Assembly: GCA_016934515.1 (NCBI GenBank)
Contig: JAFGSR010000077.1
Coordinates: 1,330-65,329 of the forward strand
Length of the DNA: 64,000 nucleotides
Direction of reading: 5' to 3'
DNA from: Sedimentisphaerales bacterium
Lineage (GTDB): Bacteria; Planctomycetota; Phycisphaerae; Sedimentisphaerales; SM23-30
The stretch's first letter is position 1; each line of letters begins with the position of its first letter. Below are positions 9,908 to 27,863 of this stretch, piece after piece. Made by a program: the position numbers and the translations under genes. The notes under the pieces were generated by a model that was not told the origin of the DNA, did not search any database, and worked only from the letters and a program-made list of their open reading frames with translations.

Positions 9908-9914
9908 ATAATGC

Positions 9915-11415: not shown

Positions 11416-11746
11416 GCTTTTGGCCCGGGGAATCAGCGACCGAAAAATGATGTAAATCCTTATTAGACACTGATTTGCACTGATTTTTATGATTTTAATT
11501 CCTAGTGAGGTGGTGGGGTATAAAATTTTGAATTTTTTCACGCAAAGACGCCAAGACGCCAAGATTTTTAGGCAGGATAATTCACCTGCAACAGAGACAG
11601 ACGCATGATTGACGGAGTGGGGAGCGGGTGGTTATAATGGAGGTAGAATGAAGAATAATTAAGAAAAGATCAAACATTTTCTACTTCCGGTCAGAGATTA
11701 AGCGATAAATGTACCTGACTCTTTTAGCTTGTTGACCCCTTTAGCT

Positions 11747-12559
11747 TCAGGCATTGTTTTTTAGCAGTATTATGAGATTTTGCGGGGTAAGCATCTGGAG
11801 ATCACTTTGTTTCTCGATGAAAGGCTTTATATCTGCGATAACTTTGTTCCAATCGAATTCTGATACCCTGGCGGCGATATGCTGTCTCCAGTTTTCTTCG
11901 GTCAGTTCCGGCCCTGACCAGCCTGTTTGTTTCAGGGCATTATTTAGCAAAAGGATATTGGGTTCCGGCCATTTTCTGTCCGAAAGGTACCACATAAGAT
12001 CATAAACATCTCTGCCCTTGGTATATTTGCGCGTTGCTAAAGCATGTAGTTTTCCCGCCAGCAAAGAGCTTTTGTCATAATGCTGAAGATTTAAAAAACC
12101 ATGTTTCCTGATGATGCTGGTTTCCAGTTTGGCTCCGGTGGGAGGATTACAGTCAATTTCTATTTTGATTGAGATAATTTCAGAACCAAGAGGCGACAGA
12201 TCCAGTTCATAAAGCAAACCGCTGAATTTGATAAATGCTGCTTTTACGGTTTTGGCGGCTTTGGCTTTAATGGTTATTTTATAATCTTCTGCAAGAAATC
12301 TGTCCTTAATTTTTAGCATAAGTTCTTCAAAGTTGTCCCGGATTTTCGGTTCTGTGGTTGAGAAATCCAGGTCTTCGGAAAAACGAGGCATCGAATACAG
12401 AAATCTTAAGGCGGTCCCGCCGACAAATGCCCAGTTCACAAAAGCTCCATTTTCCTGAAGACACTCGAGCATTCTGGCCTGTAGATATTCACGGACAAGG
12501 CATCGGGCAAAATTAGTGTCCCGGATTTTTTCGATTTGCTGTTTTAAATAATCTTTCAT
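11747..12559 (-). CDS. nucleotidyltransferase AbiEii/AbiGii-family toxin (type IV TA / abortive-infection module)
   Basis: 270-aa ORF with the block FVGGTALRFLYSMPRFSEDLDF characteristic of AbiEii. It has a 4-nt ATGA overlap with the upstream partner. Confidence 0.8.
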   Translation of the reverse strand: MKDYLKQQIEKIRDTNFARCLVREYLQARMLECLQENGAFVNWAFVGGTALRFLYSMPRFSEDLDFSTTEPKIRDNFEELMLKIKDRFLAEDYKITIKAKAAKTVKAAFIKFSGLLYELDLSPLGSEIISIKIEIDCNPPTGAKLETSIIRKHGFLNLQHYDKSSLLAGKLHALATRKYTKGRDVYDLMWYLSDRKWPEPNILLLNNALKQTGWSGPELTEENWRQHIAARVSEFDWNKVIADIKPFIEKQSDLQMLTPQNLIILLKNNA

Positions 12560-13188
12560 AGTTCAATACCTTCGCCTTGGTGAAGAACTTTTTCAATATT
12601 ATTCCGGGCCCGGCTGAGCTTGGGAAGTTTAAATCTTTGTACAAACTCGCTTAGTGTCTTTTGGTTAATCCGCTCAAAGTTCTGTAGCCTTAGTTCTTTG
12701 ATAAACTCGATTTCATCACCGCCCGGAGTCAGGTAAATCAGATCTAGAAGTGCTTTTTCGGGGCGGGCGATAAACACCGTTTGTCTGAATTTAAGCTCGA
12801 CTTGCTGATAGCCCCAGAAGTATTTTTTGCTTATATGCCGGAATTCAAAGCGGCCTAACGGAGTTTCAACATTTTGAGGCCTTGCTGTAGTAATGTTTGT
12901 AACAACCGGAACAAATTCCGGGATCATTCCATACCAGGACAGGGCGGAATGCAGGCTTACATACGAAGGCTGCTTTAGACGGTTGGCGATAGTGAATGGT
13001 TCACAGGAGACTTTTCGGTAAGGCTCGGCAAGGGTGTAAAGACCCTTGTGAAGTCTGATAATCTTTCCGCTCTTGACCCACCTGCTGATTTGCAGCCTGA
13101 TTTGGGGCAGATTTTGCCCGGCAGCCAGGAAACTGACAGTAAAAACCGGCAAATCGGAAACTTTTGCTAATAAGTCGGTGTATTTCAT
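12556..13188 (-). CDS. AbiEi-family antitoxin / transcriptional regulator
   Basis: 210-aa ORF with a winged-helix-like N-terminus (LQISRWVKSGKIIRLHKGLYTL). It is translationally coupled to the AbiEii gene. Confidence 0.75.
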   Translation of the reverse strand: MKYTDLLAKVSDLPVFTVSFLAAGQNLPQIRLQISRWVKSGKIIRLHKGLYTLAEPYRKVSCEPFTIANRLKQPSYVSLHSALSWYGMIPEFVPVVTNITTARPQNVETPLGRFEFRHISKKYFWGYQQVELKFRQTVFIARPEKALLDLIYLTPGGDEIEFIKELRLQNFERINQKTLSEFVQRFKLPKLSRARNNIEKVLHQGEGIEL

Positions 13189-13354
13189 GGCGACAATATA
13201 TCATATAAGATAAAATAACGCAATAGATATTTCGTCATAAAACAGCTAAAACTTTAGCAGGCCGGTATAAAAGCCGGTACCCTACCCGTCAATCCGATAA
13301 TCCTCTGAAACCAAATGCTTTCGACTTCACTTCTTAGGGGGAATATAAAAAGGC

Positions 13355-13409
13355 GGAAAAGGATTTGACAGGGTGGCTGGATTGGTGAGATAATATTTCT
13401 AAACCTAAA
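13355..13409 (+). repeat. promoter-like module copy with no obvious downstream gene
   Basis: The sequence ggaaaaggaTTTGACAgggtggctggattggtgaGATAATatttctaaacctaaa is about 85 percent identical to 15232-15285. It contains TTGACA (13365-13370), an 18-nt spacer and GATAAT (13389-13394). Confidence 0.6.
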
Positions 13410-13440
13410 TTCAACTTCGCTGCAATAATGCAAATTACTA

Positions 13441-13490
13441 CGGTTGAGATTGCCGCGTCGGTCTTGGGGACCTCCTCGCAATGACAGTTT
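13441..13490 (+). repeat. 50-nt direct repeat, copy 1 (cggttgagattgccgcgtcggtc..gacctcctcgcaatgacagttt)
   Basis: 47 of 50 positions are identical to 13688-13737. Confidence 0.85.
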
Positions 13491-13538
13491 GTGTGGTGCT
13501 CGGGTGGGGTATAAGAAAGTCCGAAATCCGAAACAAAT

Positions 13539-13578
13539 CTGGATGCCCGATCAAGTCGGGCATGACAAGTCAGGGCGG
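13539..13578 (+). repeat. hairpin module ctggatgcccga-n-tcgggcatgacaagtcag-gcgg, copy 1
   Basis: A near-identical copy lies at 22309-22348. It contains the palindrome atgcccga..tcgggcat. Confidence 0.8.
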
Positions 13579-13687
13579 AGGAGTTGGGGAAAAAATAAGA
13601 ATGCCGGCGATACGGGGGACTCATTGAATCATGGGAAAGATGCCGGTGGTACGGGAGAATGTGTGTAGATTGCACAATGGCATCGAG

Positions 13688-13737
13688 CGGTTAAGATTGC
13701 CGCGTCGGTCCTGCGGACCTCCTCGCAATGACAGTTT
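13688..13737 (+). repeat. 50-nt direct repeat, copy 2
   Basis: 47 of 50 positions are identical to 13441-13490. Confidence 0.85.
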
Positions 13738-13805
13738 TTTAAGAGTGCCGGCGAGACGCCGGCGGTACGGGGGACAGCGTGGGATGAAGGGCATCTGAGA
13801 CTCAA

Positions 13806-15179
13806 TTATGCGTCCATTCTAAAAGTCGGTAGGGGGCGGCCTTGTTTGTGGCGTTGGTAGTAGTAATAGAATCCCCAGTAGATGGCTAGGTTTGCGAGCC
13901 AGGAATTTTTCTTTAGGGGTAAGAGTTTTAGGCGGGCGAAGGCGGAGGCGGGGTGGTAGAAATCGCAGAAGGCGGCCATTTGGGCTTTGGCTAGTTGTTG
14001 GGTGGTTAATTGTTTCGGCTGGAAAACTACTGTTGCGCCGTTATATTTTTCCCAGTCTTCGGTTAAGAGGCGGCCTTGTTTGCGGTATTCTTCGAAAATG
14101 GCGGTTCCGGGATAAGGTGTCAGGATCGGATAGCAGCTCATCACCAGTCCGGCACGCTGAGCAAAACGCACCGTTGCTCGACAGGTGTCCCAGGTATCAT
14201 TATCGAATCCGAAAATAAACGAGCCCCACAAGCTAATATCGTGGGACTGAATTTTTTTGATGCGCTGGATATAACTTTCGGCTTTTACGTAGTTCTTATG
14301 CGCCTCGGTCAGGGTTTTGGGGTTGGGGCTTTCCAGGCCGATGATTAAGCCCTGGCAGCCGCTGGCCCGCATGGCGGCGAGCAGTTGGTCGTTATTGCTA
14401 ATCAGAATGTCGCACTGCGAGGCCCACTTGATGTTGAGCGGTTTTATTTTTTCGCAAAGTTCCAGAGCCCAGCGGTGGTTGCCGGCGAAGTTGTCGTCGC
14501 TGAAAATGAAAAAATTGCTTCCGGTTTCCTGGGCGGCTTTCATTTCGTCAACGATGCTTGGTATCGAACGCTGACGGTACTTTCGTCCGAACACGGCTGG
14601 TGTGGTGCAGAAGGTGCAGTTGTGCGGGCAGCCTCGCGAGGTCTGGATGGGATTATAAACCAGGTAATCTTTCGGGTTGAGCAGGTCTTTGCGCGGGGTG
14701 ACAATCGGGGCTTCGGGGTAATCACGCCAGTTATAAATCCTTTTCAACTCATTTCCCGCGGCGATGTCATTCAAAGCATTTGGAAATGTTCCTTCGGCAT
14801 CACCCAGGCAAACCGCGTCGCAATGTTCGAGTGCTTCTTCGGGCAAAGCTGAGGGATGTATCCCGCCCATTATCACTTTGACGCCCAGTTTGCGATAGGC
14901 GTCGGCCAGTTCGTAGGCTCGTTTGGCCTGGGTGGTCATGGCGCCTATTGCTACGACATCAACATCCGCACGGGGTGAGTGTCCCTGTTCCTGTATGCAC
15001 TCATCGACTATTTCTATTTCCCAGCCCGGCGGGGTCACGGCGGCACAGATTGCCAGGTTCACGGGCATAAACAAACCCCGCCGCCCCATGGTTATTTTGG
15101 TGATTACGTCCGGCAGGGTGATGGTTGTCAGAGGGCTGTTGGGATTTATTAAGCGTAATTTACTCATAATTTTTTGCAT
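13806..15179 (-). CDS. B12-binding-domain radical SAM protein (class B, DUF4070-type C-terminus)
   Basis: 457-aa ORF with an N-terminal Rossmann-like B12-binding region (VDVVAIGAMTTQAKRAYELADAYRKLGVKVIMGGIHPS). The CxxxCxxC motif SRGCPHNCTFC lies at nt 14604-14630 on the minus strand. Confidence 0.85.
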   Translation of the reverse strand: MQKIMSKLRLINPNSPLTTITLPDVITKITMGRRGLFMPVNLAICAAVTPPGWEIEIVDECIQEQGHSPRADVDVVAIGAMTTQAKRAYELADAYRKLGVKVIMGGIHPSALPEEALEHCDAVCLGDAEGTFPNALNDIAAGNELKRIYNWRDYPEAPIVTPRKDLLNPKDYLVYNPIQTSRGCPHNCTFCTTPAVFGRKYRQRSIPSIVDEMKAAQETGSNFFIFSDDNFAGNHRWALELCEKIKPLNIKWASQCDILISNNDQLLAAMRASGCQGLIIGLESPNPKTLTEAHKNYVKAESYIQRIKKIQSHDISLWGSFIFGFDNDTWDTCRATVRFAQRAGLVMSCYPILTPYPGTAIFEEYRKQGRLLTEDWEKYNGATVVFQPKQLTTQQLAKAQMAAFCDFYHPASAFARLKLLPLKKNSWLANLAIYWGFYYYYQRHKQGRPLPTFRMDA

Positions 15180-15339: not shown

Positions 15340-16431
15340 ATGGATTCGATAGAGCGATTTCGGTTGGCGATGGAGCACCAGGAACCGGACCGGGTGCCGA
15401 TTGACTATTGGGCGACGTCGGAGATCAACGCCAAGTTGCGGGAGCATTACGGATTTTCCGAGCAGGAGGAGTTGCTGGAGCATTTGGAGGTGGATTTTCG
15501 TTACATTGATGGGCCGAAGTATGTCGGGCCGGAATTTACGATTCGCGAAGATGGGTCGAAGGAGGACCATTTTGGGGTGTCGCGTAAGATGGTCAGTTAC
15601 GGTGAAGGGGGCAAGCAGGGGGCGTACAGTGAGGTGGTGGAGTATCCGCTGGAAGGGGCGGGAAGTGTTGATGAAATCGAGAGCTATGCGAAATGGCCTC
15701 GGGCGGATTGGTTTGATTACGAATGTGTGCGGGAGCAGGCGCGGGCGGCAAAGGCTAAGGGTAAAGTTGTGGTGTTCATGGGGGATCGGTTGAATCGTTG
15801 TGCCCAGTTGAAGCCGGCGATGTATGTGCGCGGGGTGGAACAAATTCTAGTGGATATTATGATAAATCCGGAAATGGCACGTGCTATTTTCGGCCGGATT
15901 GCGGATTTTTATGCGGAATACGCGCGGCGGACGCTGGAGGCAGGGGAGGGAAATATTGATATTTTTTTTACCGGGGATGATTTTGGTACGCAGAACAATA
16001 CTTTTATGTCGGTGGAGAGGTGGCGGGATTTTCTGCGGGAGGGATTTAAGCGGTTTATAGACATCGGTCATGAATTTGATTGCCTGGTATGTCATCATAC
16101 CTGCGGGAGTATATTTAAGCTGTTGCCGGAATTTGTGGAATGCGGGCTGGATATTCTTAATCCGCTGCAGCCGGAAGTGGTGGGGATGGATTACGAGTTG
16201 ATTAACGAGCAGTTCGGGAAGAGTTTGTCGTTTCATGGCGGGATTTCTATACAGAAGACCTTGCCCTACGGCAGTTGCGACGATGTGCGGAATGAAGTGA
16301 AGAATCTGCGGAAAAGCATTGCCCCCGGGGGCGGATATATTTTCTGTACGGCTCATAACATCCAGACGGATACATCGTTGGAAAATGTGGAAGCTTTATT
16401 CAGTGCTTATAAGGAGTATGGCAGGTATTGA
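15340..16431 (+). CDS. URO-D superfamily protein, MtaA/CmuA-like (corrinoid-type methyltransferase fold)
   Basis: 363-aa ORF with N-terminus RFRLAMEHQEPDRVPIDYW. An H-x-C motif (VCHHTCGS) plus a later Cys (GGGYIFCTAHNI) match the MtaA-type Zn triad. Confidence 0.75.
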   Translation: MDSIERFRLAMEHQEPDRVPIDYWATSEINAKLREHYGFSEQEELLEHLEVDFRYIDGPKYVGPEFTIREDGSKEDHFGVSRKMVSYGEGGKQGAYSEVVEYPLEGAGSVDEIESYAKWPRADWFDYECVREQARAAKAKGKVVVFMGDRLNRCAQLKPAMYVRGVEQILVDIMINPEMARAIFGRIADFYAEYARRTLEAGEGNIDIFFTGDDFGTQNNTFMSVERWRDFLREGFKRFIDIGHEFDCLVCHHTCGSIFKLLPEFVECGLDILNPLQPEVVGMDYELINEQFGKSLSFHGGISIQKTLPYGSCDDVRNEVKNLRKSIAPGGGYIFCTAHNIQTDTSLENVEALFSAYKEYGRY

Positions 16432-16546
16432 CGAGGGGGGCAGCGAATTGGCGGGGGGAGGATTTTCCAGGAGCAGCTAAAAAACCCAGGGTAAGCCTTA
16501 CAGGTGTTCAAAATGCTCTTTGGAGGGGGAAAAAATGAAAAAGGAT

Positions 16547-16575
16547 TTGACCGGGGTGGGAAAGTGGGGTATAAT
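16547..16575 (+). promoter_or_regulatory. near-consensus sigma-70 promoter upstream of the TetR gene
   Basis: TTGACC (16547-16552), a 17-nt spacer and TATAAT (16570-16575). It is preceded by gaaaaaggat, as in the other two modules. Confidence 0.6.
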
Positions 16576-16676
16576 GAATGGTGTTCAGTAAGTGAATATT
16601 GGTTATTTGGAGTTTGGAGCGTGGTATCGGTTATCGGTTATCAGTTATTTGGTGATGGTGGTGGCAGGGTCTTTAA

Positions 16677-17309
16677 ATGGGAACGGTAGAGCGTCGGCAG
16701 CGGGAGGCGGGGCGTCGTCGGGAGAGTATTCTGGCGGCGGCGCGGAAGGTGTTTTGGCAGCAGGGATATGCGGGGACGACGATACCGCAAATAGCTGGGG
16801 TAGCTGAACTTGCGCCCGGGACGATCTATTTGTACTTTCCCAGTAAGGATGCGCTTTATGTTGAGCTGCTGATGGAAGGGTATGATATTCTGCTGGGGCG
16901 GCTGAAGGAACAGGTGGCGGCTGGGGGGTCGGCTTATGAGCAGGCGGAGCGGTTGATTGAGGTGTTTTTTGGCTTTGCGCGGGAGTATCCGCACTATTAT
17001 GACATTATTTTCTTTTTGCTGCAGCGGGATAATACGGCCCGGTGGCAGATTAAACTGCCGGGGGATCAGATAGCAAAGCTTATGGAAAAGGAGGAGCAAT
17101 GTAAGCAGGTTGCGGCGCAAATCCTTGATAGGGTTGAGTTTGGGGATGGTGCGGAGCGGGCGGCGGCGGTGGAGGCGGCCTGGAGCATGTTGGCGGGGGT
17201 GGTGCTTTATAAGCGAAAAGAGGCAGATTTCAGGCAGGTGTGTGAGCAGGCGAAGAAACTGCTGCTGGCGGCGGTGTTTATGGAAGAAAGGATGAAGGCT
17301 GAAGGTTGA
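16677..17309 (+). CDS. TetR/AcrR-family transcriptional regulator
   Basis: 210-aa ORF with the HTH block ILAAARKVFWQQGYAGTTIPQIAGVAELAPGTIYLYFPSKDALY. Confidence 0.85.
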   Translation: MGTVERRQREAGRRRESILAAARKVFWQQGYAGTTIPQIAGVAELAPGTIYLYFPSKDALYVELLMEGYDILLGRLKEQVAAGGSAYEQAERLIEVFFGFAREYPHYYDIIFFLLQRDNTARWQIKLPGDQIAKLMEKEEQCKQVAAQILDRVEFGDGAERAAAVEAAWSMLAGVVLYKRKEADFRQVCEQAKKLLLAAVFMEERMKAEG

Positions 17310-17360
17310 GCGTGAGGAATGTAAATGACGGTTTATCAGTATTGTAAATGATAAAGCTGA

Positions 17361-17389
17361 TTGAAATATAGGTGTCAATGTACTAGAAT
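17361..17389 (+). promoter_or_regulatory. candidate promoter for the PlsA/Ger-like fusion gene
   Basis: TTGAAA (17361-17366), a 17-nt spacer and TAGAAT (17384-17389), in the 263-nt gap between the TetR gene and ATG 17573. Confidence 0.45.
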
Positions 17390-17572
17390 AGTTCAGCCTG
17401 ATCCGGTTGGATTTTGGATTGAGGTTCAAAAAGTCTATTTGGCAGGATTAGGCAGTGGCTGAATCTATAAGCTAATCAAGGCTGATTATTATTGCGCTGG
17501 GATTTTATCAGTTAATGGCTAAGCTTTTGATAGTCAGTCGTCTTTTTGAATAAAGCGAAAGGTGAAATCAAC

Positions 17573-20500
17573 ATGACCAGACTGAATGGTAAGCGTTCTA
17601 TTGACGAGAGCAGGTCGTTTGAGCCGGTTTTAAGTAAGATACCGGGAGATGGGCCGTTGCATTTGGGGATTGATATTGGGTCGGTAAGTTGCAAGGTGGC
17701 GGTTTTAACTCATGTTCGTTCAGTGTGTTATCTGAATTATCAGCGGACGCACGGGCGGGGGATTGAGACGGCGCGGGCGATGTTGTCGGATTTGTTTGGT
17801 CAGATTGCCCCGGACCGGATTGCGACAATGGTGGGGACGGGTAGCGGTGGTCGGGCGTTTTGTGAGTTGCTGAAGCTGGATTTTGTGAATGAGCTGATTT
17901 GTCAGTCGGCGGCGATACGTCATTTGCGGCCTGAGGTGCGGACGCTGGTGGAGATGGGAGGGCAGGACAGCAAGGTGATTTTCCTGAGTGATCCGGCAGA
18001 GCAGCAGGCGAGCGGTGATCAGCGGGAGATGGTGGATTTTGCGATGAATACGAACTGTGCGGCGGGGACGGGGAGTTTTCTGGATCAGCAGGCGACGCGG
18101 CTGGGGGTTCATATTGAGGAGGAATTCGGGCAGTTGGCATTGCAGAGCGAGACGCCGCCGCGGGTGGCGGGGCGTTGTTCGGTGTTTGCCAAGAGCGATA
18201 TGATTCATCTGCAGCAGCAGGCGACGCCGGTGCATGATATTGTGGCGGGATTGTGTTTGGGTTTGGCGCGGAATCTGAAGGCGTCTCTGTGTCAGGGTAA
18301 GAAGGTGGTTAAGCCGATGGCGTTTTGCGGCGGGGTGGCAGCGAACGCGGGGGTGGTACGGGCGTTGGAAGATGTGTTTGAGTTGGGTCGGGGCGGATTG
18401 ATTGTGCCGGACGAGCATGCGTTGACGGGTGCGATTGGAGCGGTGCTGATGCAGATGCGGCAGGGAGCCGGGGCCGAGAGTACGCAGGAGCCGCGGGTGA
18501 TATTGAGTAAGCTGGACGAGTATATTAAGCAGAACCGGACGGTGGGTCATCGGCTAGAGAGGTTGAAGCAGCCAAGCAATGGGACGCCGGAGAGCCGGGT
18601 GCATAAGGAGATTCTGGAGGAGGTGCGGGTTTCGGGAGAGAAGATTGTTGCGTATCTGGGGATCGATGTTGGTTCGATCAGTACGAATGTGGTGGTGATG
18701 GATGAGCTGCAGCGGGTGCTGAGCAAGGCTTATTTGATGACGGCGGGTCGGCCGCTGGAGGCGGTGAAGCAGGGTTTGGAGATTGTGGAGCCGGATGTGA
18801 AGGGGCTGGTGGAGATTCGGGGGGCGGCGACGACGGGGTCGGGGCGGTATTTGACGGGTGATTTTGTGGGGGCGGACCTGGTGATTAACGAGATTACGGC
18901 ACAGGCGACGGGTGCGGCGCTGGTGGATCATGAGGTCGATACGATATTTGAGATTGGAGGTCAGGATTCGAAATATATTTCGCTGGAAGACGGGGTGGTG
19001 GTTGATTTTGAGATGAATCATGCCTGTGCGGCGGGGACGGGGAGCTTTCTGGAGGAGCAGGCGGAGCGTTTGGGGATGAGTATCAAGGGAGAGTTTGCCG
19101 AGGAAGCGTTTTCGTCGTCGTCGCCGATTAAGCTGGGTGAGCGGTGCACGGTGTTTATGGAATCGGATTTGTTGAGTTATCAGCAGCAGGGAGCGGAGCG
19201 GCCGGATTTGGTGGCGGGGTTGGCGTATTCGATTGTTACGAATTATCTGAACCGGGTGGTGAGTCATCGCAAGATAGGTCAGAAGATTTTTTTCCAGGGT
19301 GGGACGGCGTTTAACCGGGCGGTGGTGTCGGCGTTCGAAGCGGTGACGGGTAAGTCGATTATTGTGCCGGACCATCATGAAGTGACGGGGGCGTTGGGAG
19401 CGGCGGAGTTGGCGCGGCGGCACATGAGCCAGGTTGAAATGGAAGCTGGGGGCGAAAAGGTGGAGAGCAGTTTTCGGGGGTTTGATCTGACGCAGTTGGA
19501 GTATAAGATCAGGACCTTCGAGTGTACCCATTGTCCGAACAACTGCGAGATCAAGGAAGTGACGATGGCGGGAGCGGAGCCGTTGTTTTACGGGAGTCGA
19601 TGTGATCGTTACAACGTTAAGAAGGATAAGGTGAGTGTGGGGGACATTGCGGATTTGTTTGCGGAACGGCAGAAGATGCTGGAGAGTTTTGCGGGGCTGA
19701 AAGGTAAGCGAGGGGCGGCGGGTGAATTGGCGAAGGAGAAGGAGCAGCTCTCTGGGAGTACACAGAAAGGTGGCACCCAGCGTCGGACGGTGGGGATTCC
19801 GATGTGTTTGAGTAATTATCAGTATTTGCCGTTGTGGGGTAGGTTTTTGGGTGAGTTGGGATTTGAGGTGGTGCTTTCGGGGCGTTCGTCGAAGTCGGTG
19901 ATTCATCAGGGAGTGGAGGCGGTGGTGTCTCAGCCTTGTTTCCCGGTGAAGGTGGCGCACGGGCATGTGTTGGAGTTGGTGAAGAAGGAGTTGGATTTTA
20001 TCTGGCTGCCGAGCATTGTTTCGATGGAGGCGAATTACAAGGAGAATGTTCACAATCAGTTGTGTCCTTATGTGCAGACAATTCCTTACCAGGTGCGCAC
20101 GGCGCTGAAGGCCAAGGGGATCGATCTGGATGGGGCGAAGAATCATCTGATAGATTTGCATGTGCGGTTTATGGATGGTTTGAAGCAGTTGCGTCGGACG
20201 CTGAAGCCTTTGGCGGAGAAGTTTGGGGTGAGTCAGAGGCAGATTAATCGGGCGTTAGATGAGGGGCTGAAGGTTCAGAGGGCGTTTGAGGAAGCTTGCC
20301 GGGAGCGGGGGCGTGAGATTCTGGATGGATTGGCGCCTGGTGAGAAGGCGTGCGTGATAGTTTCGCGGCCTTACAATGGTTGCGATCCGGGAGTGAGTCT
20401 GGATTTGCCACGGAAGCTGCGGAAGATGAATGTGTTGTCGGTGCCGATTGATTTTCTGGATCTGGACGCGGCGAACGTGATTGAGCCGGAGCTGCAAAGT

Positions 20501-22075
20501 GAGATGTACTGGAAGTACGGTCAGCGGATTTACCGGGCGGCGCACATTATTCGAGAGGATCCGCGTTTGAACGCGATCTATATCAGTAATTTCAGTTGCG
20601 GGCCGGACAGTTTTATTATTACGTTTTTCAAGGAATTGTTGACATCGACGCTGGAGGACGGCAGTGAGGTGAAGAAGCCGGCGCTGGTGCTGGAGATTGA
20701 CGAGCACAGTGCGGACGCAGGAGTGATAACGCGGCTGGAGGCGTTTCATGAATCGCTCAAGGCGGTGGAATCGCGACGTCGGGGCAAGGAGCAGGCGTTT
20801 CAGACGGTTCAGCACGCGGATAGTCCGTGGCGGCAGGAATGGGGCGATTGTTCGGGCCGGACGATATATATTCCGTTGATGGGCGATTCGGCGCATGCAT
20901 TGGCGGCGGCGTTTCGGCATTGCGGTCAGGATGCCAAGGTGATGCCGATGGGAGATGATGAGACGCTGCGGTGGGGTCGGATGTACACCTCGGGTAAGGA
21001 ATGTTTGCCGTGTACGATTACGACGGGTGATATGTTGAAGGTGGTTAACGAGAAGGACTGTGATCCGGATAAGGTGGCGTTTTTCATGCCGGGTAGCAGC
21101 GGGCCGTGTCGATTTGGTCAGTATAATTGTTTGCAGAACCTGGTGTTGAAGCAGGCGGGTCTGCCGAATGATATTCCGATAGTGGCGCCGAATCAGGACG
21201 GGAATTTTTATGAGCATTTTCAGAGGTTCCGGATTGATCCGACGCGGCTGGCGTACAACGGGATAGCGGCGGTTGATTTGTTGGGTAAGGTTTTGTTGAA
21301 GACGCGGCCTTACGAAGTGGTGGCGGGCAGCGCGGACGAGGCTTATGATGGGAGTTTGCAGTTAATTGTCGAGGCGATGGAGAAGGGGCTCCGGGAAGCG
21401 GAGTTGGTGCCGGTGATGCGTCGTTGTGCGGAGAAGTTTGCGGCGTTGGAGTTGGAAGGTGTGGGTACGAAGCCGTTAATAACGGTGGTGGGCGAGATAT
21501 ATGTTCGGAGTCATCCGTTTGCCAACGATAATATTGTGCGTAAGCTGGAGGCGTTGGGCGGGGAGGTGAGTTTGGCAAGTTTTGCGGAATGGCTTTACTA
21601 TACGAATCATACGCGGGAGTTGATGGCCAAGCGATGGAGGAATGCGAAGCTGTGGCTTCAGAATTATTTGAAGGATAAAGTTCAGCACCGGATAGAAAAG
21701 CAGTTGGCGGGGCCGTTGGAGGAGAATTTTGGTCCGTTGGCGGATCCGGAGATTACCGATACGATCGAGCCGGCAAAGAGTTATATGCATGAATCGTTTG
21801 AAGGAGAGGCGATTTTGAGTATCGGCAAGATGGTGGAGATGTTCCATCTGGGAGCGTCGGGAGCGGTGAATGTGATGCCGTTTACGTGTATGCCGTCAAC
21901 GATTGTATCGGCGATATCGCGGGAGATCAGTCTGGATTGCAATAACATGCCGATTTTGAATATCAGTTATGACGGTCAGCAGGATCCGACGTTGCAGACG
22001 CGGCTGGAGGCGTTTATGCATCAGGCACGGACGTTTAGCAAGAGTGTTTTGCGGGCGAAGGTTCAGGTTGGTTAG
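17573..22075 (+). CDS. fused BCR/HAD-family enzyme: two activase-type ATPase modules plus two 2-hydroxyacyl-CoA-dehydratase-like (HgdB/DUF2229) halves; PlsA-PlsR / Ger-like architecture
   Basis: ORF 17546-22075, with ATG 17573 preceded by AAAGGTGA. Two BcrAD/BadFG modules are present (LHLGIDIGSVSCK..NTNCAAGTGSFLDQQ and YLGIDVGSISTN..NHACAAGTGSFLEEQ). A CxxCxxxC knuckle FECTHCPNNCEIKEV lies at nt 19523-19546. Dehydratase-like blocks are VGIPMCLSNYQYLPLW and IYIPLMGDS..TSGKECLPC. Confidence 0.85.
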   Translation: MTRLNGKRSIDESRSFEPVLSKIPGDGPLHLGIDIGSVSCKVAVLTHVRSVCYLNYQRTHGRGIETARAMLSDLFGQIAPDRIATMVGTGSGGRAFCELLKLDFVNELICQSAAIRHLRPEVRTLVEMGGQDSKVIFLSDPAEQQASGDQREMVDFAMNTNCAAGTGSFLDQQATRLGVHIEEEFGQLALQSETPPRVAGRCSVFAKSDMIHLQQQATPVHDIVAGLCLGLARNLKASLCQGKKVVKPMAFCGGVAANAGVVRALEDVFELGRGGLIVPDEHALTGAIGAVLMQMRQGAGAESTQEPRVILSKLDEYIKQNRTVGHRLERLKQPSNGTPESRVHKEILEEVRVSGEKIVAYLGIDVGSISTNVVVMDELQRVLSKAYLMTAGRPLEAVKQGLEIVEPDVKGLVEIRGAATTGSGRYLTGDFVGADLVINEITAQATGAALVDHEVDTIFEIGGQDSKYISLEDGVVVDFEMNHACAAGTGSFLEEQAERLGMSIKGEFAEEAFSSSSPIKLGERCTVFMESDLLSYQQQGAERPDLVAGLAYSIVTNYLNRVVSHRKIGQKIFFQGGTAFNRAVVSAFEAVTGKSIIVPDHHEVTGALGAAELARRHMSQVEMEAGGEKVESSFRGFDLTQLEYKIRTFECTHCPNNCEIKEVTMAGAEPLFYGSRCDRYNVKKDKVSVGDIADLFAERQKMLESFAGLKGKRGAAGELAKEKEQLSGSTQKGGTQRRTVGIPMCLSNYQYLPLWGRFLGELGFEVVLSGRSSKSVIHQGVEAVVSQPCFPVKVAHGHVLELVKKELDFIWLPSIVSMEANYKENVHNQLCPYVQTIPYQVRTALKAKGIDLDGAKNHLIDLHVRFMDGLKQLRRTLKPLAEKFGVSQRQINRALDEGLKVQRAFEEACRERGREILDGLAPGEKACVIVSRPYNGCDPGVSLDLPRKLRKMNVLSVPIDFLDLDAANVIEPELQSEMYWKYGQRIYRAAHIIREDPRLNAIYISNFSCGPDSFIITFFKELLTSTLEDGSEVKKPALVLEIDEHSADAGVITRLEAFHESLKAVESRRRGKEQAFQTVQHADSPWRQEWGDCSGRTIYIPLMGDSAHALAAAFRHCGQDAKVMPMGDDETLRWGRMYTSGKECLPCTITTGDMLKVVNEKDCDPDKVAFFMPGSSGPCRFGQYNCLQNLVLKQAGLPNDIPIVAPNQDGNFYEHFQRFRIDPTRLAYNGIAAVDLLGKVLLKTRPYEVVAGSADEAYDGSLQLIVEAMEKGLREAELVPVMRRCAEKFAALELEGVGTKPLITVVGEIYVRSHPFANDNIVRKLEALGGEVSLASFAEWLYYTNHTRELMAKRWRNAKLWLQNYLKDKVQHRIEKQLAGPLEENFGPLADPEITDTIEPAKSYMHESFEGEAILSIGKMVEMFHLGASGAVNVMPFTCMPSTIVSAISREISLDCNNMPILNISYDGQQDPTLQTRLEAFMHQARTFSKSVLRAKVQVG

Positions 22076-22202
22076 CGGGAGACGTGGTATGTTTTTTGGC
22101 AAAATAGAATTATAATGACGAATTAAGAAACCAGACCCGGCTTCGCCAGAGCGCTTCGCCGCGGCGAGACAATGACGAATGACGAAGTTCGAAATTAATT
22201 TT

Positions 22203-22226
22203 GCCGCAGAGGACGCAGAGGAATTT
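22203..22226 (-). repeat. word-doubling module, inverted copy
   Basis: The reverse complement aaattcctctgcgtcctctgcggc matches 6734-6757 and 7483-7516. Confidence 0.7.
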
Positions 22227-22308
22227 ATTTTTGATAGCCACAAAAAACGCAAAAAACACAGAAAAGATTTTACCATGAAGAGCATGAAGGATATGAAGTT
22301 TTTTAAGA

Positions 22309-22348
22309 CTGGATGCCCGAGCGAGTCGGGCATGACAAGTCAGAGCGG
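22309..22348 (+). repeat. hairpin module, copy 2
   Basis: It matches 13539-13578 with 4 substitutions. Confidence 0.8.
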
Positions 22349-22368
22349 TGGTTGTTCGGGATAACAGC

Positions 22369-22401
22369 GACCACCCCCAAGGGTACTTGGCGGTGCCACC
22401 C
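22369..22401 (-). repeat. hairpin module gggtggcaccgccaag..cttgggggtggtc, inverted copy
   Basis: Its reverse complement matches 7373-7406. Confidence 0.75.
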
Positions 22402-22504
22402 GGCGTTAAGCCAATTATTCAAATTTAGATAACTAAGAAACGTTGGTTAAGATCAGTTAACATAAGGCGCCAGTTTAGGGTAGTTAACGGAACAGGAGAA
22501 TCGA

Positions 22505-24451
22505 TTGACACCAAGTGAAAAGTTAACCGGTCGGGAGGGAGCCGGGATGTTTGAAGAAGTTTTACCAGAGGTATCGGGAGCGGCGGTTGGGGAAGCTTCC
22601 AATTTGACGGCGGAGCAGCATCTGGCGTGCTATCGGCGGGAGATGCGTCGATTTGAGGGTGAATTCAGCAGTTTGCCCTGTGAGACGCGGGCGACGTGTC
22701 CGGGTTGTGGTGAGCAGGTGCCGGCGTGGTTCGAGCGGGTGGAGTCGGGCGGACCAGGCCAGGGTGAAAGGTCAGAGGCGAGTGATGGGCCTGACCAGAT
22801 TGACGGTTCAGGTGGAGATCAGGTGGTGCTGCGGTTTGAATGCGAGGGGTGTGGTGAGCATTCGGAAGTGCATCATGATACGATCTGGAGTGAGCCGGTT
22901 GCGGATCGGGAGTATTCGGCGAAGCAGACTTACAGCGGGCGGGTGATCAAGCCTAATGCTCGCGAGTTGCCCCGGACGGTGCAGACGCTATGTCCGGAAT
23001 GCTCGGCGGTGATTGTGGGGCGTTATTTTATTGAGAATCATGCGGTGATGATTGAGAAGTGTTGTCCGGAGCATGGTTATTTTCGGGATATTATTAATCG
23101 GGACGTGCCGTTGTATAACAAGGCGGCGCAGTGGAGCTTTGAGGAATTGGCGGGTCTGAGCAATCCGGCGAATCCGGGGGAGAATTTGTGCCCGACGGAC
23201 TGCGGACTTTGTGGGAAGCATCAGTCGTGTTCGTGTTTGGCGAATATTGATTTGACGAATCGTTGCAATTTGAAGTGTCCGGTGTGTTTTGCCAATTCGA
23301 ACGCGGCGGGATATGTATATGAGCCGACTTTTGAGCAGTTGGTGGAGATGCTTCAGGCGTTGCGCGATATGCGGCCGACGCCGGCGACGGCGGTGCAGTT
23401 CAGCGGGGGCGAGCCGACGATCCATCCGCAGTTTATGGAGGTGGTTTCGGAGGCGGCGCGGATGGGATTTTCGAATATTCAGATTGCGACGAACGGGATT
23501 CGGATGGCGGATTATGAATTTGCGCGGAGAGCGGCGGAGGCGGGATTGCATACGCTGTATCTGCAGTTTGACGGGATAGGCGGGGAGATTTATTGTAAGC
23601 TGCGGGGTCGGGACATTTGGGAAGAGAAGCTGGCGGCGATAGAGAATTGTCGGCGGACGGGGATGAAGGTTTGTCTGGTGCCGACGGTGATTCGGACGGT
23701 GAATGATGATCAGGTGGGGCCGATTTTTAATTTTGCGGTGGATAATGTTGATGTGATCAGCGGGATAAGTTATCAGCCGGTGTGTTTTACGGGTCGGATC
23801 GATCAGGAGCGTCGTCTGGAGCAGCGTTATACGCTGGGAGATTTGGCCAAGGATATTGCGGCGGCTAGTGGGGCGGTGGTGGAGCGGGATTTTTATCCGT
23901 TGTCGATAGTGACGCCGTTGGCGCAGTTTTTGGAAGCGATTACGGGAGATCCGAAGATTAAGCCCAGTTGCCACACGGATTGCGCGTTGGGGAGTTATTT
24001 TTTCGTATCGCCGGATAAGCAGGTTTATCCGTTTCCGCAGGTGCTGGATGTGGAGGCGATGTTCAGCGGGATGAACCGCTGGGCGCACAAGCTGGCGGGC
24101 AAGGGTGGGAAGATTTCGTTTTTTGACAAGCTGCGTTTGAGTAAGTTTTTTAAGTCGGTGTTTCGCAAGGATCAGGCGCCGCCGGATTTGAATGTGAAGA
24201 AGTTTGTGGGTGCATTGCAGGGGATGGTGGACAAGAGCAAGGGTCGCGGTGCGGCGGGCGGGAGTAATTATCGCACGCTGATGGCGGCGGGGATGCATTT
24301 TCAGGACCGGTATAATTATGATGTGGAGCGGACGAAGCGGTGTGTGATTCAGTATTCGACGCCGGCGGGGGTGTTTCCGTTTTGCAGTTACAACGGTGGG
24401 CCGGCTTATCGCGAGTTGGTGGAGAAGATGTACACCCGGGGAGAGGAGTGA
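22505..24451 (+). CDS. radical SAM protein of the COG1964 / MJ0619 (Tes, GDGT-MAS) type with an extra N-terminal zinc-ribbon extension
   Basis: 648-aa ORF with a TTG start 5 nt after AGGAGA (alternative ATG at 22547). A rubredoxin-like knuckle LCPEC..CCPEHG lies at nt 22991-23065, followed by a second Cys cluster CPTDCGLCGKHQSC. The AdoMet cluster NRCNLKCPVCF lies at nt 23264-23287. The blocks GGEPT, VPTVIRTVND and ISYQPVCFTGR are also present. Confidence 0.8.
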   Translation: MTPSEKLTGREGAGMFEEVLPEVSGAAVGEASNLTAEQHLACYRREMRRFEGEFSSLPCETRATCPGCGEQVPAWFERVESGGPGQGERSEASDGPDQIDGSGGDQVVLRFECEGCGEHSEVHHDTIWSEPVADREYSAKQTYSGRVIKPNARELPRTVQTLCPECSAVIVGRYFIENHAVMIEKCCPEHGYFRDIINRDVPLYNKAAQWSFEELAGLSNPANPGENLCPTDCGLCGKHQSCSCLANIDLTNRCNLKCPVCFANSNAAGYVYEPTFEQLVEMLQALRDMRPTPATAVQFSGGEPTIHPQFMEVVSEAARMGFSNIQIATNGIRMADYEFARRAAEAGLHTLYLQFDGIGGEIYCKLRGRDIWEEKLAAIENCRRTGMKVCLVPTVIRTVNDDQVGPIFNFAVDNVDVISGISYQPVCFTGRIDQERRLEQRYTLGDLAKDIAAASGAVVERDFYPLSIVTPLAQFLEAITGDPKIKPSCHTDCALGSYFFVSPDKQVYPFPQVLDVEAMFSGMNRWAHKLAGKGGKISFFDKLRLSKFFKSVFRKDQAPPDLNVKKFVGALQGMVDKSKGRGAAGGSNYRTLMAAGMHFQDRYNYDVERTKRCVIQYSTPAGVFPFCSYNGGPAYRELVEKMYTRGEE

Positions 24452-24519: not shown

Positions 24520-25116
24520 ATGGGAATTGTGACTGATTATCCATTGATACTGGCGTCGGGTTCGCCGCGGCGGGGGGAGTTGTTGCGTGCCGGGGGTTAT
24601 GAATTTGAGGTGGTTGAGCCGCGACATGAAGAGCCGGAGTTGCCGAGTGGTTTGGTTTTGCCGACGGAGTGGGCGGAGGCGCTGGCGTATTACAAGGCGC
24701 GTGGGGTGGCTTTTGAGCGTTCGGATGCGGTGGTTTTGGGGGCGGATACGATTGTGGTTAACGGTGGGCAGATAATCGGTAAACCTCGGGATGAGGATCA
24801 CGCGCGGGAGATTTTGACGAATCAGTTTGCCGGTCGGAATGAAGTGATTACCGGGTTGGCGGTGATTTGGCCGGGGCAGTTGGGCAGGATAATTACGCAT
24901 GTTCGGACGGTGCTGATGATGCGGGCGATGCCGGAGAAGGAGTTGGAGGATTATCTGGCGGCGGGGACCTGGCGGGGTAAGGCGGGTGCTTATGCGTATC
25001 AGGAGGGTGGGGATAAATATGTGGAATCGATTGAGGGCAGTGAGTCGAATGTGGTGGGTCTGCCGATGGAGAAGCTGGGCGAGATATTTGGGCTAATAAG
25101 AAGATGGCAAAATTAA
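24520..25116 (+). CDS. maf: Maf-family nucleoside-triphosphate pyrophosphatase
   Basis: 198-aa ORF containing LILASGSPRRGELL, GADTIV and GKAGAYAYQE..ESIEGSESNVVGLP. Confidence 0.9.
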   Translation: MGIVTDYPLILASGSPRRGELLRAGGYEFEVVEPRHEEPELPSGLVLPTEWAEALAYYKARGVAFERSDAVVLGADTIVVNGGQIIGKPRDEDHAREILTNQFAGRNEVITGLAVIWPGQLGRIITHVRTVLMMRAMPEKELEDYLAAGTWRGKAGAYAYQEGGDKYVESIEGSESNVVGLPMEKLGEIFGLIRRWQN

Positions 25117-25664
25117 AGCGACTAAAAAGGAAACTGCTGTTGCAATTGGTGGTGCCGGTGCCGGTGTTATTGCTGCTGATGTTGGGGGTGGAGGTCGGTT
25201 GTGAGGACGATGGGGCCGAGAGGCAGAGGCGAGAGGTGGTTTCGCAGGCGGGAGCGGTGCAGCAGTTGCCGAGGGCGGAGGTTGAATTGGGAGGAGAGGT
25301 TTTTTGGGTGGAGTTGGCGTTTACGCGGGAAAGTCGAGAGCGGGGTTTGATGTTTCGCCGGGAACTGGGGGCTAATGCGGGGATGTTGTTTATATATCCG
25401 GAGGAGCAGTATTGCAGTTTCTGGATGAAAAACACACTGATCGATTTGGATATTTTGTTTATTCGTGCGGACGGGGTGGTGGTGAATAGTGCAACGATGA
25501 AGGCGCCGGGGCCGGGGCAGGAGCCGGGGAGTTATCCGAGTAAGGGGGCGGTGAAATATTGTCTGGAGCTGAATGCCGGGACGATAAAGCGTTTGGGGAT
25601 TAAGGTTGGGGACCGGGTGGAGTTGGGTGAGCGGATCGGGCAGATAATGGCTGAGCCGGAATGA
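25104..25664 (+). CDS. DUF192-domain protein with N-terminal membrane/signal segment
   Basis: 186-aa ORF containing RERGLMFRRELGANAGMLFIYPEEQYCSFWMKNTLIDLDILFI, which is typical of DUF192. It overlaps maf by 13 nt. Confidence 0.75.
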   Translation: MAKLKRLKRKLLLQLVVPVPVLLLLMLGVEVGCEDDGAERQRREVVSQAGAVQQLPRAEVELGGEVFWVELAFTRESRERGLMFRRELGANAGMLFIYPEEQYCSFWMKNTLIDLDILFIRADGVVVNSATMKAPGPGQEPGSYPSKGAVKYCLELNAGTIKRLGIKVGDRVELGERIGQIMAEPE

Positions 25665-25827: not shown

Positions 25828-27090
25828 TTAGTTTTCGGATTCGGGTTCGTCTTCGATTTGGAGGCCGACGATGGTTACGTCGTCGCGGGGGTGGAGGGAG
25901 CCTTCTTCGCGGTTGATGATGTGGAGTAGTTTGTCGCACATATCCTTGATGTCGAGGTAGCCGAGGTCGTCGAATTCCTGTCGGAAGCGTAACGGCTGGT
26001 CGGGTCCGGGGTTGACGAAAGCAACTTCGACGCCGTCGCTGTAGAGCAGCAGTTTGTCGCCGAGGTGGAGTTGGACGATTTCGGTGGTGTAGGTTTGATC
26101 GGGGAAGACGCCCAGGAGGGAGCCGCCGACGTTGATTTCGGAATTTTGGCCGGTTTTGTTGATGAGCATGGGGGCGGGGTGTCCGGCACTAGCGAGGCGG
26201 AGTCGGAGGGTTTTGGTGTTGAGCAGTCCGTAGCAGCAGGTGGCGAACTGGAAGTTGCTGAGGTCCTGTCCTACCATGTCGGCGTTAAGCTGTTTTAGGG
26301 TTTCGCCGGGTTCGATGAGTGTGTAGGAGTGGCCTTCGATGCGTTTGGTTACGATGGCGCGTTTGATGAACATGGTGAGCAGTGCGGCAGGCATGCCGTG
26401 TCCGACGGCGTCGGCGATGTAGAAGCCGATGTGGTTTTCATCGAGGCGCATGACGTCGTAGATATCACCGCTGACCCAGGTGGCGGGCCGGAAGATATTG
26501 GCGAATTTTATGCCGGGGATTTTGGGCATTTCGCGGGGGAGGAAGTCGCGTTGGAGTCTGGAGGCGAGTTGCATTTCTTCGTTGACCTGGGAGAAGTAGT
26601 TGTTAAGGGGCTGGCTGACCATGCGGAGTCGGTCAACTTCCTCGGAGAGTTTTTTAATGGTGGGTTGGATTTGCATCAGGGTAGCAAGTCGAGCGGCGGT
26701 GACCTGGGGAGATTCGGGTTGGGTTACGACGGCGAAGCGTTCGGGGTTGAGATGTTGAAGGATATTCTGGATTTCAATATTCTCATTTGACTCATCAGCG
26801 ATTACCAGGGTGCAGAGCGGTTGACTTTCCAAGATATGGGTAAGGTCAAGTACGCGTGGGCAGTCTGATAAGTCCAGGTTGTTGAGGATGAGGACCGCGG
26901 CGGCGATTTTTTGGGCTTTTTGGGCGGTATCGAGTGCCTGATCCATTTGGCAGGTGATTTTTTCGATATTGAGCAGATGAGCAGCCTGTTGGATGGTTTC
27001 GGGGACCATTTCGGGTCCGATAATCAGGATGCGTGGTTTTTTACCGGTAGAAGTTATTTTTTTGTTTGTCTGTGTACTGATAGCTTGCAT
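25828..27090 (-). CDS. PP2C/SpoIIE-family serine phosphatase (RsbU-like) with receiver-like N-domain
   Basis: 420-aa ORF with the SpoIIE block WVSGDIYDV..FYIADAVGHGMPAALLTMF and LLLYSDGV. The N-terminal alpha/beta region begins KPRILIIGPEM. Confidence 0.8.
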   Translation of the reverse strand: MQAISTQTNKKITSTGKKPRILIIGPEMVPETIQQAAHLLNIEKITCQMDQALDTAQKAQKIAAAVLILNNLDLSDCPRVLDLTHILESQPLCTLVIADESNENIEIQNILQHLNPERFAVVTQPESPQVTAARLATLMQIQPTIKKLSEEVDRLRMVSQPLNNYFSQVNEEMQLASRLQRDFLPREMPKIPGIKFANIFRPATWVSGDIYDVMRLDENHIGFYIADAVGHGMPAALLTMFIKRAIVTKRIEGHSYTLIEPGETLKQLNADMVGQDLSNFQFATCCYGLLNTKTLRLRLASAGHPAPMLINKTGQNSEINVGGSLLGVFPDQTYTTEIVQLHLGDKLLLYSDGVEVAFVNPGPDQPLRFRQEFDDLGYLDIKDMCDKLLHIINREEGSLHPRDDVTIVGLQIEDEPESEN

Positions 27091-27451: not shown

Positions 27452-27863
27452 GGACCACGTTAATTGAAAATGTTGAGAAGAAGAGGCAGCTATAAGTAAG
27501 CTTGGGTAAGAGTAACTGGATTGTTTTATTAGCCGGGGGGAGTCTTGGGTATTATGAGTAGTTGCTTTGAGCTTATCGGATTTTTTTTTGGTTTATTAAC
27601 CAACCCATCGGTCGGGTAGAATCGTGTTGAGGTTCTCCCTCCGACGAAAGATTTCAAAAGTTTGATAAATTGTCTTAAATTTGTGCGCTCATTCCGCGCG
27701 CATTATCAAAATAAATACAATTAAATATTTTTTCGCTCTAACAAAAAGAATGTTCGGCTGGGCAAAAGGCCCATTATCACTATTTTTAATGCATCTCCGA
27801 TCAGGTCGAGGACAAGTTTTGTTAGGGGCTCTTAGTAATATTCATACCGGAAGGAGACCGACT

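Follow-up and report, generated by a model that had tools for sequence, protein, structure and literature searches.

Adjacent genes for a PlsA/PlsR-Ger-like reductase and a Tes-type radical SAM protein in a Sedimentisphaerales contig: a candidate module for ether-linked membrane-spanning lipids

Do two neighboring genes of an anaerobic planctomycete, one for an activase-reductase fusion and one for a protein of the radical S-adenosylmethionine (SAM) type, act together to make ether-linked, membrane-spanning lipids? The question was raised by an earlier note on a 64-kb stretch of DNA from a Sedimentisphaerales bacterium (contig JAFGSR010000077.1, positions 1,330 to 65,329; hereafter the window), which proposed that the fusion converts ester lipids into ether lipids, that the radical SAM protein couples lipid tails, and that both are controlled by one TetR regulator. 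All coordinates given here are those of the window, in which the lipid-gene block lies on the + strand between 15.3 and 25.7 kb (Table 1). Our analyses supported this interpretation as a candidate, with the exception of the single-regulator idea. Both genes are further members of known families, and the idea of a pathway combining Tes with PlsAR/Ger has already been published. The added value of the locus lies in a recurrent physical linkage and in a compact module in anaerobic Planctomycetota, whose biochemical product is predicted.

The radical SAM protein was assigned to the Tes/GDGT-MAS family, as had been proposed from its motifs, and the assignment holds at the equivalog level. The protein scored 499.3 bits against the NCBIfam model NF045702, “tetraether lipid synthase Tes”, over residues 160-644 (cut-off 450), and it matched the archaeal GDGT-MAS MJ0619 (PDB 7TOL) over residues 149-642 with 39.5% identity over 491 residues (E=1e-119). 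The expected motifs CPEC, CCPEHG, CPTDCGLCGKH and CNLKCPVCF were all identified by motif search. Comparison with the ligand list for GDGT-MAS from Lloyd et al. 2022 (PMC9433317), with the MJ0619 chain numbering offset by 20 in the alignment, showed that all catalytic ligands are conserved. In addition, the rubredoxin-like, N-terminal auxiliary [4Fe-4S] and radical SAM ligands, together with M597 and Y617, were invariant in 21 Planctomycetota homologues (alignment A1). The sole full-length PDB match of an AlphaFold model of the protein (predicted template modeling score, pTM, 0.77) was GDGT-MAS, with a target-normalized template modeling (TM) score of 0.78-0.79. The match to 7TOM had E=6e-39 over 491 columns, and the next match, MoaA, covered the radical SAM core only. 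The second-best NCBIfam match, the TrsS radical SAM (seleno)protein (NF045646), was rejected at 320 bits against a cut-off of 490. The Tes assignment is therefore supported by sequence at the equivalog level, and the coupling of lipid tails is the activity predicted from it.

The Planctomycetota Tes homologues have an N-terminal extension of ~150 residues with a conserved CxxC...CxxC...H ribbon, which was invariant in the same 21 homologues and was not present in acidobacterial and archaeal matches. This ribbon appears to be a second, duplicated zinc ribbon of the HMPTM type, as the N-terminus of one homologue (P0039) matched PF23545 at 27.4 bits, reaching the Pfam threshold. In the window protein and its 91% identical relative the ribbon is split by an acidic insertion of ~25 residues rich in Gly, Ser, Asp and Glu. 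At E<=1e-30, more than 5000 database proteins matched the Tes of the window. The best were proteins of metagenome-assembled genomes (MAGs) of Sedimentisphaerales, Phycisphaerae and Planctomycetota, several of them named Tes by PGAP, and the nearest relatives, in Sedimentisphaerales and Phycisphaerae MAGs, agreed with the earlier suggestion of an anaerobe from the Planctomycetes-Verrucomicrobia-Chlamydiae group. A neighbor-joining tree of 86 Tes sequences placed the protein inside the bacterial Tes clade (89% bootstrap), which also holds Bryobacterales and Acidobacteriaceae, and within it the Planctomycetota and the window’s subclade each had 100% bootstrap. The Tes of locus L065, from a MAG labelled Woesearchaeota, was nested in the bacterial clade beside a Desulfonatronospira sequence, which could reflect horizontal transfer or a binning error.

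The upstream gene starts with an ATG at 17573, with AGGTGA just before it, and ends at 22075. Its 1500-residue product has an identical counterpart in the database (P0121). The features that had been noticed in this polypeptide were all present, namely two activase domains, a CxxCxxxC knuckle and two reductase halves, of which the first (Red1) is a DUF2229 domain and the second (Red2) matched DUF2229 weakly (E=5.6e-4). Pfam identified two BcrAD_BadFG domains (PF01869, 229.8 bits) and one DUF2229 domain (PF09989, 199.8 bits, residues 739-961), and NCBIfam identified the acyl-CoA dehydratase activase TIGR00241 twice. Both ATPase domains (Act1 and Act2) carry the cluster motifs CAAGTG and RCxVF, and an alignment of 27 homologues showed four invariant Cys in Red1 and four in Red2. 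Red2 is homologous to stand-alone genes of 410-430 residues located upstream of Tes in other Phycisphaerae. An Act1/Act2/Red1/Red2 scheme has been described for PlsA/PlsR (PMC12838417), and a “BBD” layout, of two BcrAD_BadFG domains and then DUF2229, is conserved in the Ger of alkyl-ether producers (PMC13159169). The fusion has both the BBD layout (PF01869 twice, PF09989 once) and a second, PlsR-type reduction/dehydration domain at residues 1041-1500. Based on this Act1-Act2-Red1-Red2 architecture, the assignment of the fusion to the PlsA/PlsR-Ger kind, which the earlier note had also made, is supported. Alkyl (Ger) and alkenyl (PlsA) products are indistinguishable by sequence (PMC13274423, PMC11868695).

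Membership of the fusion in the 2-hydroxyacyl-CoA dehydratase and benzoyl-CoA reductase (BCR) families was considered and rejected. The PDB sequence matches of the fusion were activator ATPases only (HadI, HgdC, the reductase of the double-cubane cluster protein (DCCP) and benzoyl-CoA reductase ATPase subunits), and the BCR subunit models (A, D, BzdQ) were far under their cut-offs and matched the ATPase domains only. A confident model of Red1 and Red2 (predicted local distance difference test 85.8, pTM 0.86) matched, at E<=1e-3 in the PDB, solely the catalytic subunits of DCCP, of 2-hydroxyisocaproyl-CoA dehydratase (HadBC) and of Bzd/Mbd benzoyl-CoA reductases, including BzdNO. With these structural matches only 10-14% identical, and no Pfam match to HGD-D (PF06050) at E<=1e-3, the fusion did not group with the dehydratases of amino-acid fermentation.

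Orthologues of the fusion, with 1480-1500 residues and 65-75% identity, were found in the same MAG groups as the best Tes matches, and the pairing with Tes was conserved. In three relatives (loci L081, L082 and L083), whose Tes proteins are 64-68% identical to that of the window, a fusion gene of 1479-1496 residues ends 8-20 nt before Tes. Among the informative loci, a PlsA/PlsR-like gene was next to Tes in 13 of 15 in Planctomycetota, 3 of 22 in Acidobacteriota and one of two in Anaerolineales; it was found in neither of two Desulfobacterota-like loci and in none of 19 archaeal loci. The arrangement of the linked genes varied. In some loci a full fusion is upstream of Tes and co-directional with it, and in others (L086, L002, L001, L009 and the P0110 locus) the upstream gene is the stand-alone PlsR-like gene of 410-430 residues. 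The reductase and Tes genes are divergent in two Bryobacteraceae loci (L015, L074) and in an Anaerolineaceae locus (L039), and in L034 the reductase is downstream of Tes. In a lake MAG (L006; 3003-9660), a PlsA of 1122 residues and a PlsR-like protein of 434 residues are split by a DNA methylase and a 313-residue gene, probably an inserted restriction-modification pair. The genes flanking the reductase-Tes pair were otherwise unconserved.

The tree of Red2 had two deep clades, which we refer to as W and P. Clade W contains the window, L081-L084 and L039, plus fusions that are 53-60% identical and unlinked to Tes. The remaining Tes-linked reductases all fall in clade P, which branches in a manner similar to the Tes tree. 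Reductases linked to Tes are thus of the W type in the window’s group and one Anaerolineaceae locus, and of the P type in other Planctomycetota and in Acidobacteriota. Because two reductase subfamilies are found beside Tes, in several orientations and among unrelated flanks, the linkage argues for functional coupling, and inherited gene order by itself does not readily account for the pattern.

Other Phycisphaerae (L086 at 8758-14089, L002, L003, L004, L006, L008 and the P0110 locus) have a four-gene cluster of the PlsR-like gene (410-430 residues, no Pfam match), Tes, a protein of 158-175 residues with no Pfam match, and a radical SAM/SPASM protein of 560-578 residues. This SPASM protein probably corresponds to the Gms homologue for which clustering with tes has been reported in Planctomycetes. 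Neither the 158-175-residue gene nor the SPASM gene is beside Tes in the window and its close relatives.

Based on these data, our preferred reading, which we regard as reasonably probable, is that the two genes are a lipid-remodeling pair in anaerobic Planctomycetota of the Sedimentisphaerales type, giving ether-linked membrane-spanning lipids. As an enzyme of the PlsA-PlsR/Ger type, the fusion would be an iron-sulfur reductase that is driven by ATP and sensitive to oxygen. Its two activase ATPase domains would supply electrons of low potential to the HAD/BCR-like, cluster-bearing Red1 and Red2, by which the sn-1 acyl ester of a glycerophospholipid would be converted to an alkyl or alk-1-enyl ether. 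By means of 5'-deoxyadenosyl radicals and its C-terminal auxiliary cluster, Tes would couple two lipid tails at their terminal carbons, and its products would be membrane-spanning lipids, either iso-diabolic or resembling glycerol dialkyl glycerol tetraethers of the branched kind (brGDGTs). Together, the reductase and Tes would give ether-linked membrane-spanning lipids. Our data show the gene families, the conservation of the ligands, the folds and the recurrent linkage of the genes. In this scheme we infer the substrates, the alkyl or alkenyl nature of the product, the order of the steps and any co-regulation of the two genes. A bolder proposal, that anaerobic Phycisphaerae, among them the organism of the window, are genuine makers of ether-linked, brGDGT-like membrane-spanning lipids in anoxic sediments and waters, and that the Tes and PlsAR/Ger pair is sufficient for this, is one that we hold only tentatively. 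If it is correct, the linkage of two reductase subfamilies to Tes would mean a mechanistic link between ester reduction and tail coupling, perhaps within a complex.

Several points weigh against the pair acting as a dedicated module. The gap between the genes in the window is 429 nt when Tes is started at its TTG, close to the ~430 nt of the earlier note, or 471 nt if the start is the ATG at 22547, which is that of the 91% identical protein P0001; there is no conserved common regulator either. Most acidobacterial Tes genes are not beside a PlsA-like gene. Papers from 2025-2026 still call the function of bacterial Tes unconfirmed, and no accessible paper showed coupling of fatty-acyl tails by a bacterial Tes homologue. 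The fusion may also be the general plasmalogen or ether-lipid synthase of the cell, because its nearest non-orthologous relatives, the 53-60% identical fusions of clade W, were unlinked to Tes in all three loci examined (3/3). This last observation also favors a rival reading of two independent enzymes, in which the fusion is a general synthase of plasmalogens or alkyl ethers among the bulk phospholipids, Tes makes ester-linked membrane-spanning or macrocyclic lipids, and the adjacency reflects a common lipid-remodeling regulon rather than a single pathway leading to tetraethers. The spacer and the separate promoter-like sites in the window would fit such independence, as would the reports that Koribacter, with Tes only, makes tetraesters and that Mss and Tes tolerate ester and ether substrates alike. 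However, the gap is only 8-20 nt in three relatives, the presence of two reductase subfamilies in differing orientations beside Tes implies selection for co-inheritance, and the tree of P-type Red2 mirrors that of Tes. We consider independent action rather unlikely, while giving it more weight than the two explanations that follow.

The many Phycisphaerae with only a PlsR-like gene directly upstream of Tes, and no activase or Red1, raise another prospect: instead of reducing esters, the module, or its PlsR-like half at the least, would serve the radical SAM enzyme as a dedicated accessory subunit or donor of low-potential electrons. The fold is indeed common to double-cubane cluster reductases of unknown physiological substrate. 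This role seems improbable to us: flavodoxin or ferredoxin is the usual electron source of radical SAM enzymes, archaeal Tes does without a neighbor of this kind (0/19 loci), and PlsR is a required part of the characterized plasmalogen synthase; moreover, L006 retains PlsA upstream of its PlsR-like gene, parted from it only by the probable restriction-modification insertion. Some Tes homologues are named “7,8-dihydro-6-hydroxymethylpterin dimethyltransferase” by JGI, and TrsS was the next-ranking NCBIfam family, so a Tes homologue acting on a non-lipid substrate (a role like that of TrsS, or the one in the former HMPTM annotation), beside the reductase by inherited gene order without function, was also weighed. 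This explanation is already disfavored and we consider it very improbable: the Tes cut-off was passed whereas that of TrsS was not, the GDGT-MAS work (PMC9433317) has replaced the assignment of MJ0619 as HMPTM, and the linkage recurs in three phyla with unrelated flanks.

The regulatory part of the original proposal fared less well. The TetR gene does have a near-consensus promoter (11 of 12 positions), but the idea that the two genes are under one regulator was not borne out: TetR is missing from the relatives, the fusion gene has its own promoter-like site, and the spacer intervenes before Tes. In the position of TetR there is a MarR gene in L081 and no regulator in L082 and L083, and tblastn gave no match to TetR in the related Tes loci screened. 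TetR is specific to the window’s lineage and is outside the conserved unit. No inverted repeats that could be TetR operators were found in 16500-16690 or 17300-17580. A promoter-like site is also present before the URO-D gene (15242). The region has 16 promoter-like sites against 8.3 expected, and only those before the URO-D, TetR and fusion genes reach 10-11 of 12 positions.

The spacer between the fusion gene and Tes is 326 nt long in the closest relative, L084 (1585-1910; 91% identical Tes), and its 3' ~220 nt are almost identical in the two loci, being better conserved than coding sequence. Within the spacer of the window are a hairpin at 22313-22333 and, 27 nt apart, two GTTAA-N6-TTAAC sites (22446-22461 and 22473-22488); its fold z-score was -2.9. 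Window-wide, GTTWA-N6-TTAAC was not enriched (11 observed against 6.4 expected). Rfam searches of the whole window at the gathering threshold, and of 16400-22600 at E<=1, gave only a tRNA (60843-60916) and no match in the spacer or leader. Two spacer segments missing from L084 were not repeated elsewhere in the window, and so there was no evidence of a miniature inverted-repeat transposable element. One possibility is that the spacer serves Tes-Maf-DUF192 as a promoter, operator or leader specific to the lineage.

Table 1. Features of the lipid-gene block and flanking genes in the window
Feature	Position	Strand	Details
URO-D/MtaA-like gene	15340-16431	+	directly upstream of TetR and fusion genes
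Sigma-70-like promoter TTGACC-17-TATAAT	16547-16575	+	upstream of TetR gene; 11/12 consensus positions
TetR-family regulator	16677-17309	+	210 aa; TetR_N 59.7 bits (Pfam)
Promoter-like TTGAAA-17-TAGAAT	17361-17389	+	upstream of fusion gene; 10/12; consensus match only
PlsA/PlsR(Ger)-like fusion	17573-22075	+	1500 aa; order Act1-Act2-knuckle-Red1-Red2
Act1, BcrAD/BadFG activase ATPase	17663-18466	+	aa 31-298; PDB 4eht (HadI activator) E=8.6e-33; cluster-ligand motifs NCAAGTG, RCSVF
Act2, activase ATPase	18656-19414	+	aa 362-614, best PF01869 stretch; motifs ACAAGTG, RCTVF
CxxCxxxC knuckle CTHCPNNC	19523-19546	+	aa 651-658; near-invariant among homologues
Red1, DUF2229 domain	19787-20455	+	aa 739-961; four invariant Cys (alignment A3)
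Red2, PlsR-like C-terminal reductase domain	20693-22072	+	aa 1041-1500; four invariant Cys
Spacer/leader between fusion gene and Tes	22076-22504	+	
Tes/GDGT-MAS-type radical SAM	22505-24451	+	648 aa (TTG start, 22505) or 634 aa (ATG start, 22547)
Extra N-terminal zinc ribbon	22697-22879	+	C65, C68 ... C113, C116, H123; Tes aa 65-125
Rubredoxin-like site C-x2-C-x20-C-x2-H	22991-23074	+	C163, C166, C187, H190 = MJ0619 C9, C12, C33, H36
N-terminal auxiliary [4Fe-4S] ligands	23189-23221	+	C229, C233, C236, H239 = MJ0619 C73, C77, C80 and conserved His
Radical SAM CX3CX2C	23264-23287	+	C254, C258, C261
M597, Y617	24293-24355	+	= labile cluster ligand Met439 and conserved Tyr459 of GDGT-MAS (C-terminal auxiliary cluster domain)
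Maf	24520-25116	+	
DUF192	25104-25664	+	
PP2C/SpoIIE phosphatase gene	25828-27090	-	
Class II ribonucleotide reductase gene	27681-30884		

The Maf, DUF192, SpoIIE and ribonucleotide reductase genes were rejected as members of the module and are regarded as neighborhood genes because their conservation is confined to the close clade. TetR, Maf and DUF192 had no matches as conserved Tes partners in the GTDB loci screened. A gene for a B12-binding radical SAM protein of 457 residues (13806-15179, - strand) is located ~1.5 kb upstream of the TetR gene. No NCBIfam model reached its own cut-off for this protein, the best being HpnJ (129 bits against a cut-off of 578). The ring synthases GrsA/B and the methylase Gmm are likewise B12-binding radical SAM enzymes, and a lipid-modifying role for the window protein is possible but unsupported. 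The gene was not counted as a module member, as synteny with Tes was tested in 86 loci and gave one weak archaeal match. Three paralogues resembling URO-D/MtaA (methylcobamide methyltransferase-like) are present in the 64 kb: the one in the lipid-gene block and two on the - strand (35921-37000 and 50202-51404). One of the latter two adjoins a DUF1638-hydantoinase fusion (33035-35887). URO-D-like relatives are found near Tes in L006, where the gene is just upstream and 37% identical to that at 15340-16431, and weakly in L002 and L034.

Over window positions 1-36000 the third-codon-position GC skew is extreme (0.5-0.8) and tracks the DNA strand, not gene orientation. In each gene between 1.7 and 9.9 kb the + strand is rich in C, and in each gene between 9915 and 30884 it is rich in G. 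The change is abrupt, falling between truA and asd, neighbors on one strand with 8 bp between them; farther on, the skew reverts near 31-33 kb and is near neutral from 36 to 64 kb. This pattern suggests an inverted segment of ~21 kb or a mosaic origin, and the extreme skew is the reason for the many long stop-free antisense open reading frames. Overlapping genes for an AbiEii nucleotidyltransferase toxin and an AbiEi antitoxin (11747-13188, - strand) form a pair and have a GC content of 0.42-0.45, below that of their surroundings. A run of glycan-degradation genes at 37014-50175 (- strand), including GH123, GH109-like, GHL6, GFO/IDH/MocA oxidoreductases, RhaT, alpha-L-fucosidase and GH95-like genes, is typical of polysaccharide-degrading Phycisphaerae, and its codon skew is unlike that of the lipid-gene block.

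The locus is of interest since brGDGTs underpin widely used palaeotemperature and pH proxies, and their producers outside the Acidobacteria and the genes for their biosynthesis are only partly established. Bacterial Tes homologues were suggested as brGDGT makers by Zeng et al. 2022, and Mss and Ger have been validated (Sahonero-Canavesi et al. 2022). For Solibacter, Halamka et al. 2022 put forward brGDGT synthesis by homologues of PlsAR, Tes and Grs (PMC10087280), tes-gms clusters were reported in Planctomycetes and Acidobacteria (Garcia et al. 2024, PMC11214058), and a 2025 Black Sea study reported that Phycisphaerae and other Planctomycetota have homologues of Tes, GrsA, Mss and Ger. Chen et al. 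2025, as cited in PMC13023045, linked the joint presence of Tes and Ger to brGDGT production. The view in the earlier note that the genetic basis of such lipids is largely unresolved is partly out of date given the Solibacter and Chen et al. work. We found no published description of physical linkage of Tes with PlsA/PlsR/Ger in the literature searched, which did not include Chen et al. 2025 or supplementary figures. The comparative linkage, across three bacterial phyla, no archaea and two reductase subfamilies, adds genomic support to a hypothesis that was based on co-occurrence. The locus is a compact candidate module for anaerobic bacteria, which is operon-like in relatives, clonable and directly testable. 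If validated, it could provide a linked gene marker for brGDGT sources in anoxic marine and lake settings and, should the bolder proposal above be true, a portable two-gene marker for non-acidobacterial sources.

Comparison with known systems places the pair as follows. The window Tes resembles archaeal Tes/GDGT-MAS (MJ0619, 7TOL/7TOM; MA_1486) in its identity across the catalytic region (39.5%, with the equivalog cut-off passed), in having the same four metallocofactor sites, Met and Tyr, and in fold (TM 0.78). It differs in its bacterial host and its extra, Planctomycetota-specific copy of the N-terminal zinc ribbon, and in being linked to a putative ester reductase, which archaeal Tes never was in the 19 loci examined. 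Its substrate presumably has fatty-acyl rather than phytanyl chains. The window showed no archaeal genes for ether lipids. Mss (Tmari_0825 of T. maritima; T. ethanolicus) is likewise a radical SAM enzyme with a proposed analogous tail-to-tail coupling and a genome-level pairing with Ger, but by its description, on which our comparison is based, it is remotely related to Tes, whereas the window protein is of the Tes type. The tes-gms clusters (Garcia et al. 2024, PMC11214058) correspond to L086, L002, L003 and L006 in their order of Tes, a small gene and a radical SAM/SPASM gene, unlike the window and its closest relatives, which have no SPASM gene beside Tes; the text of that paper has no mention that we found of a PlsR-like gene upstream of Tes. 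With PlsA-PlsR (Q8XL47/Q8XL48 of C. perfringens; fused in Enterococcus) and Ger (Tmari_0479 of T. maritima; SHJ90043 of D. alkenivorans), compared by architecture and not by sequence, the fusion has in common Act1-Act2-Red1-Red2 in one polypeptide, the activase cluster motifs, a conserved Cys quartet in each reductase half and an anaerobic host, and it differs in its physical coupling to Tes. The pathway proposed for Solibacter usitatus (a PlsAR/Ger homologue, Tes and Grs homologues) has the same two enzyme families acting together. However, that proposal was based on genome co-occurrence in an aerobic acidobacterium, whereas the window genes are adjacent, operon-like in relatives and from a lineage of strict anaerobes.

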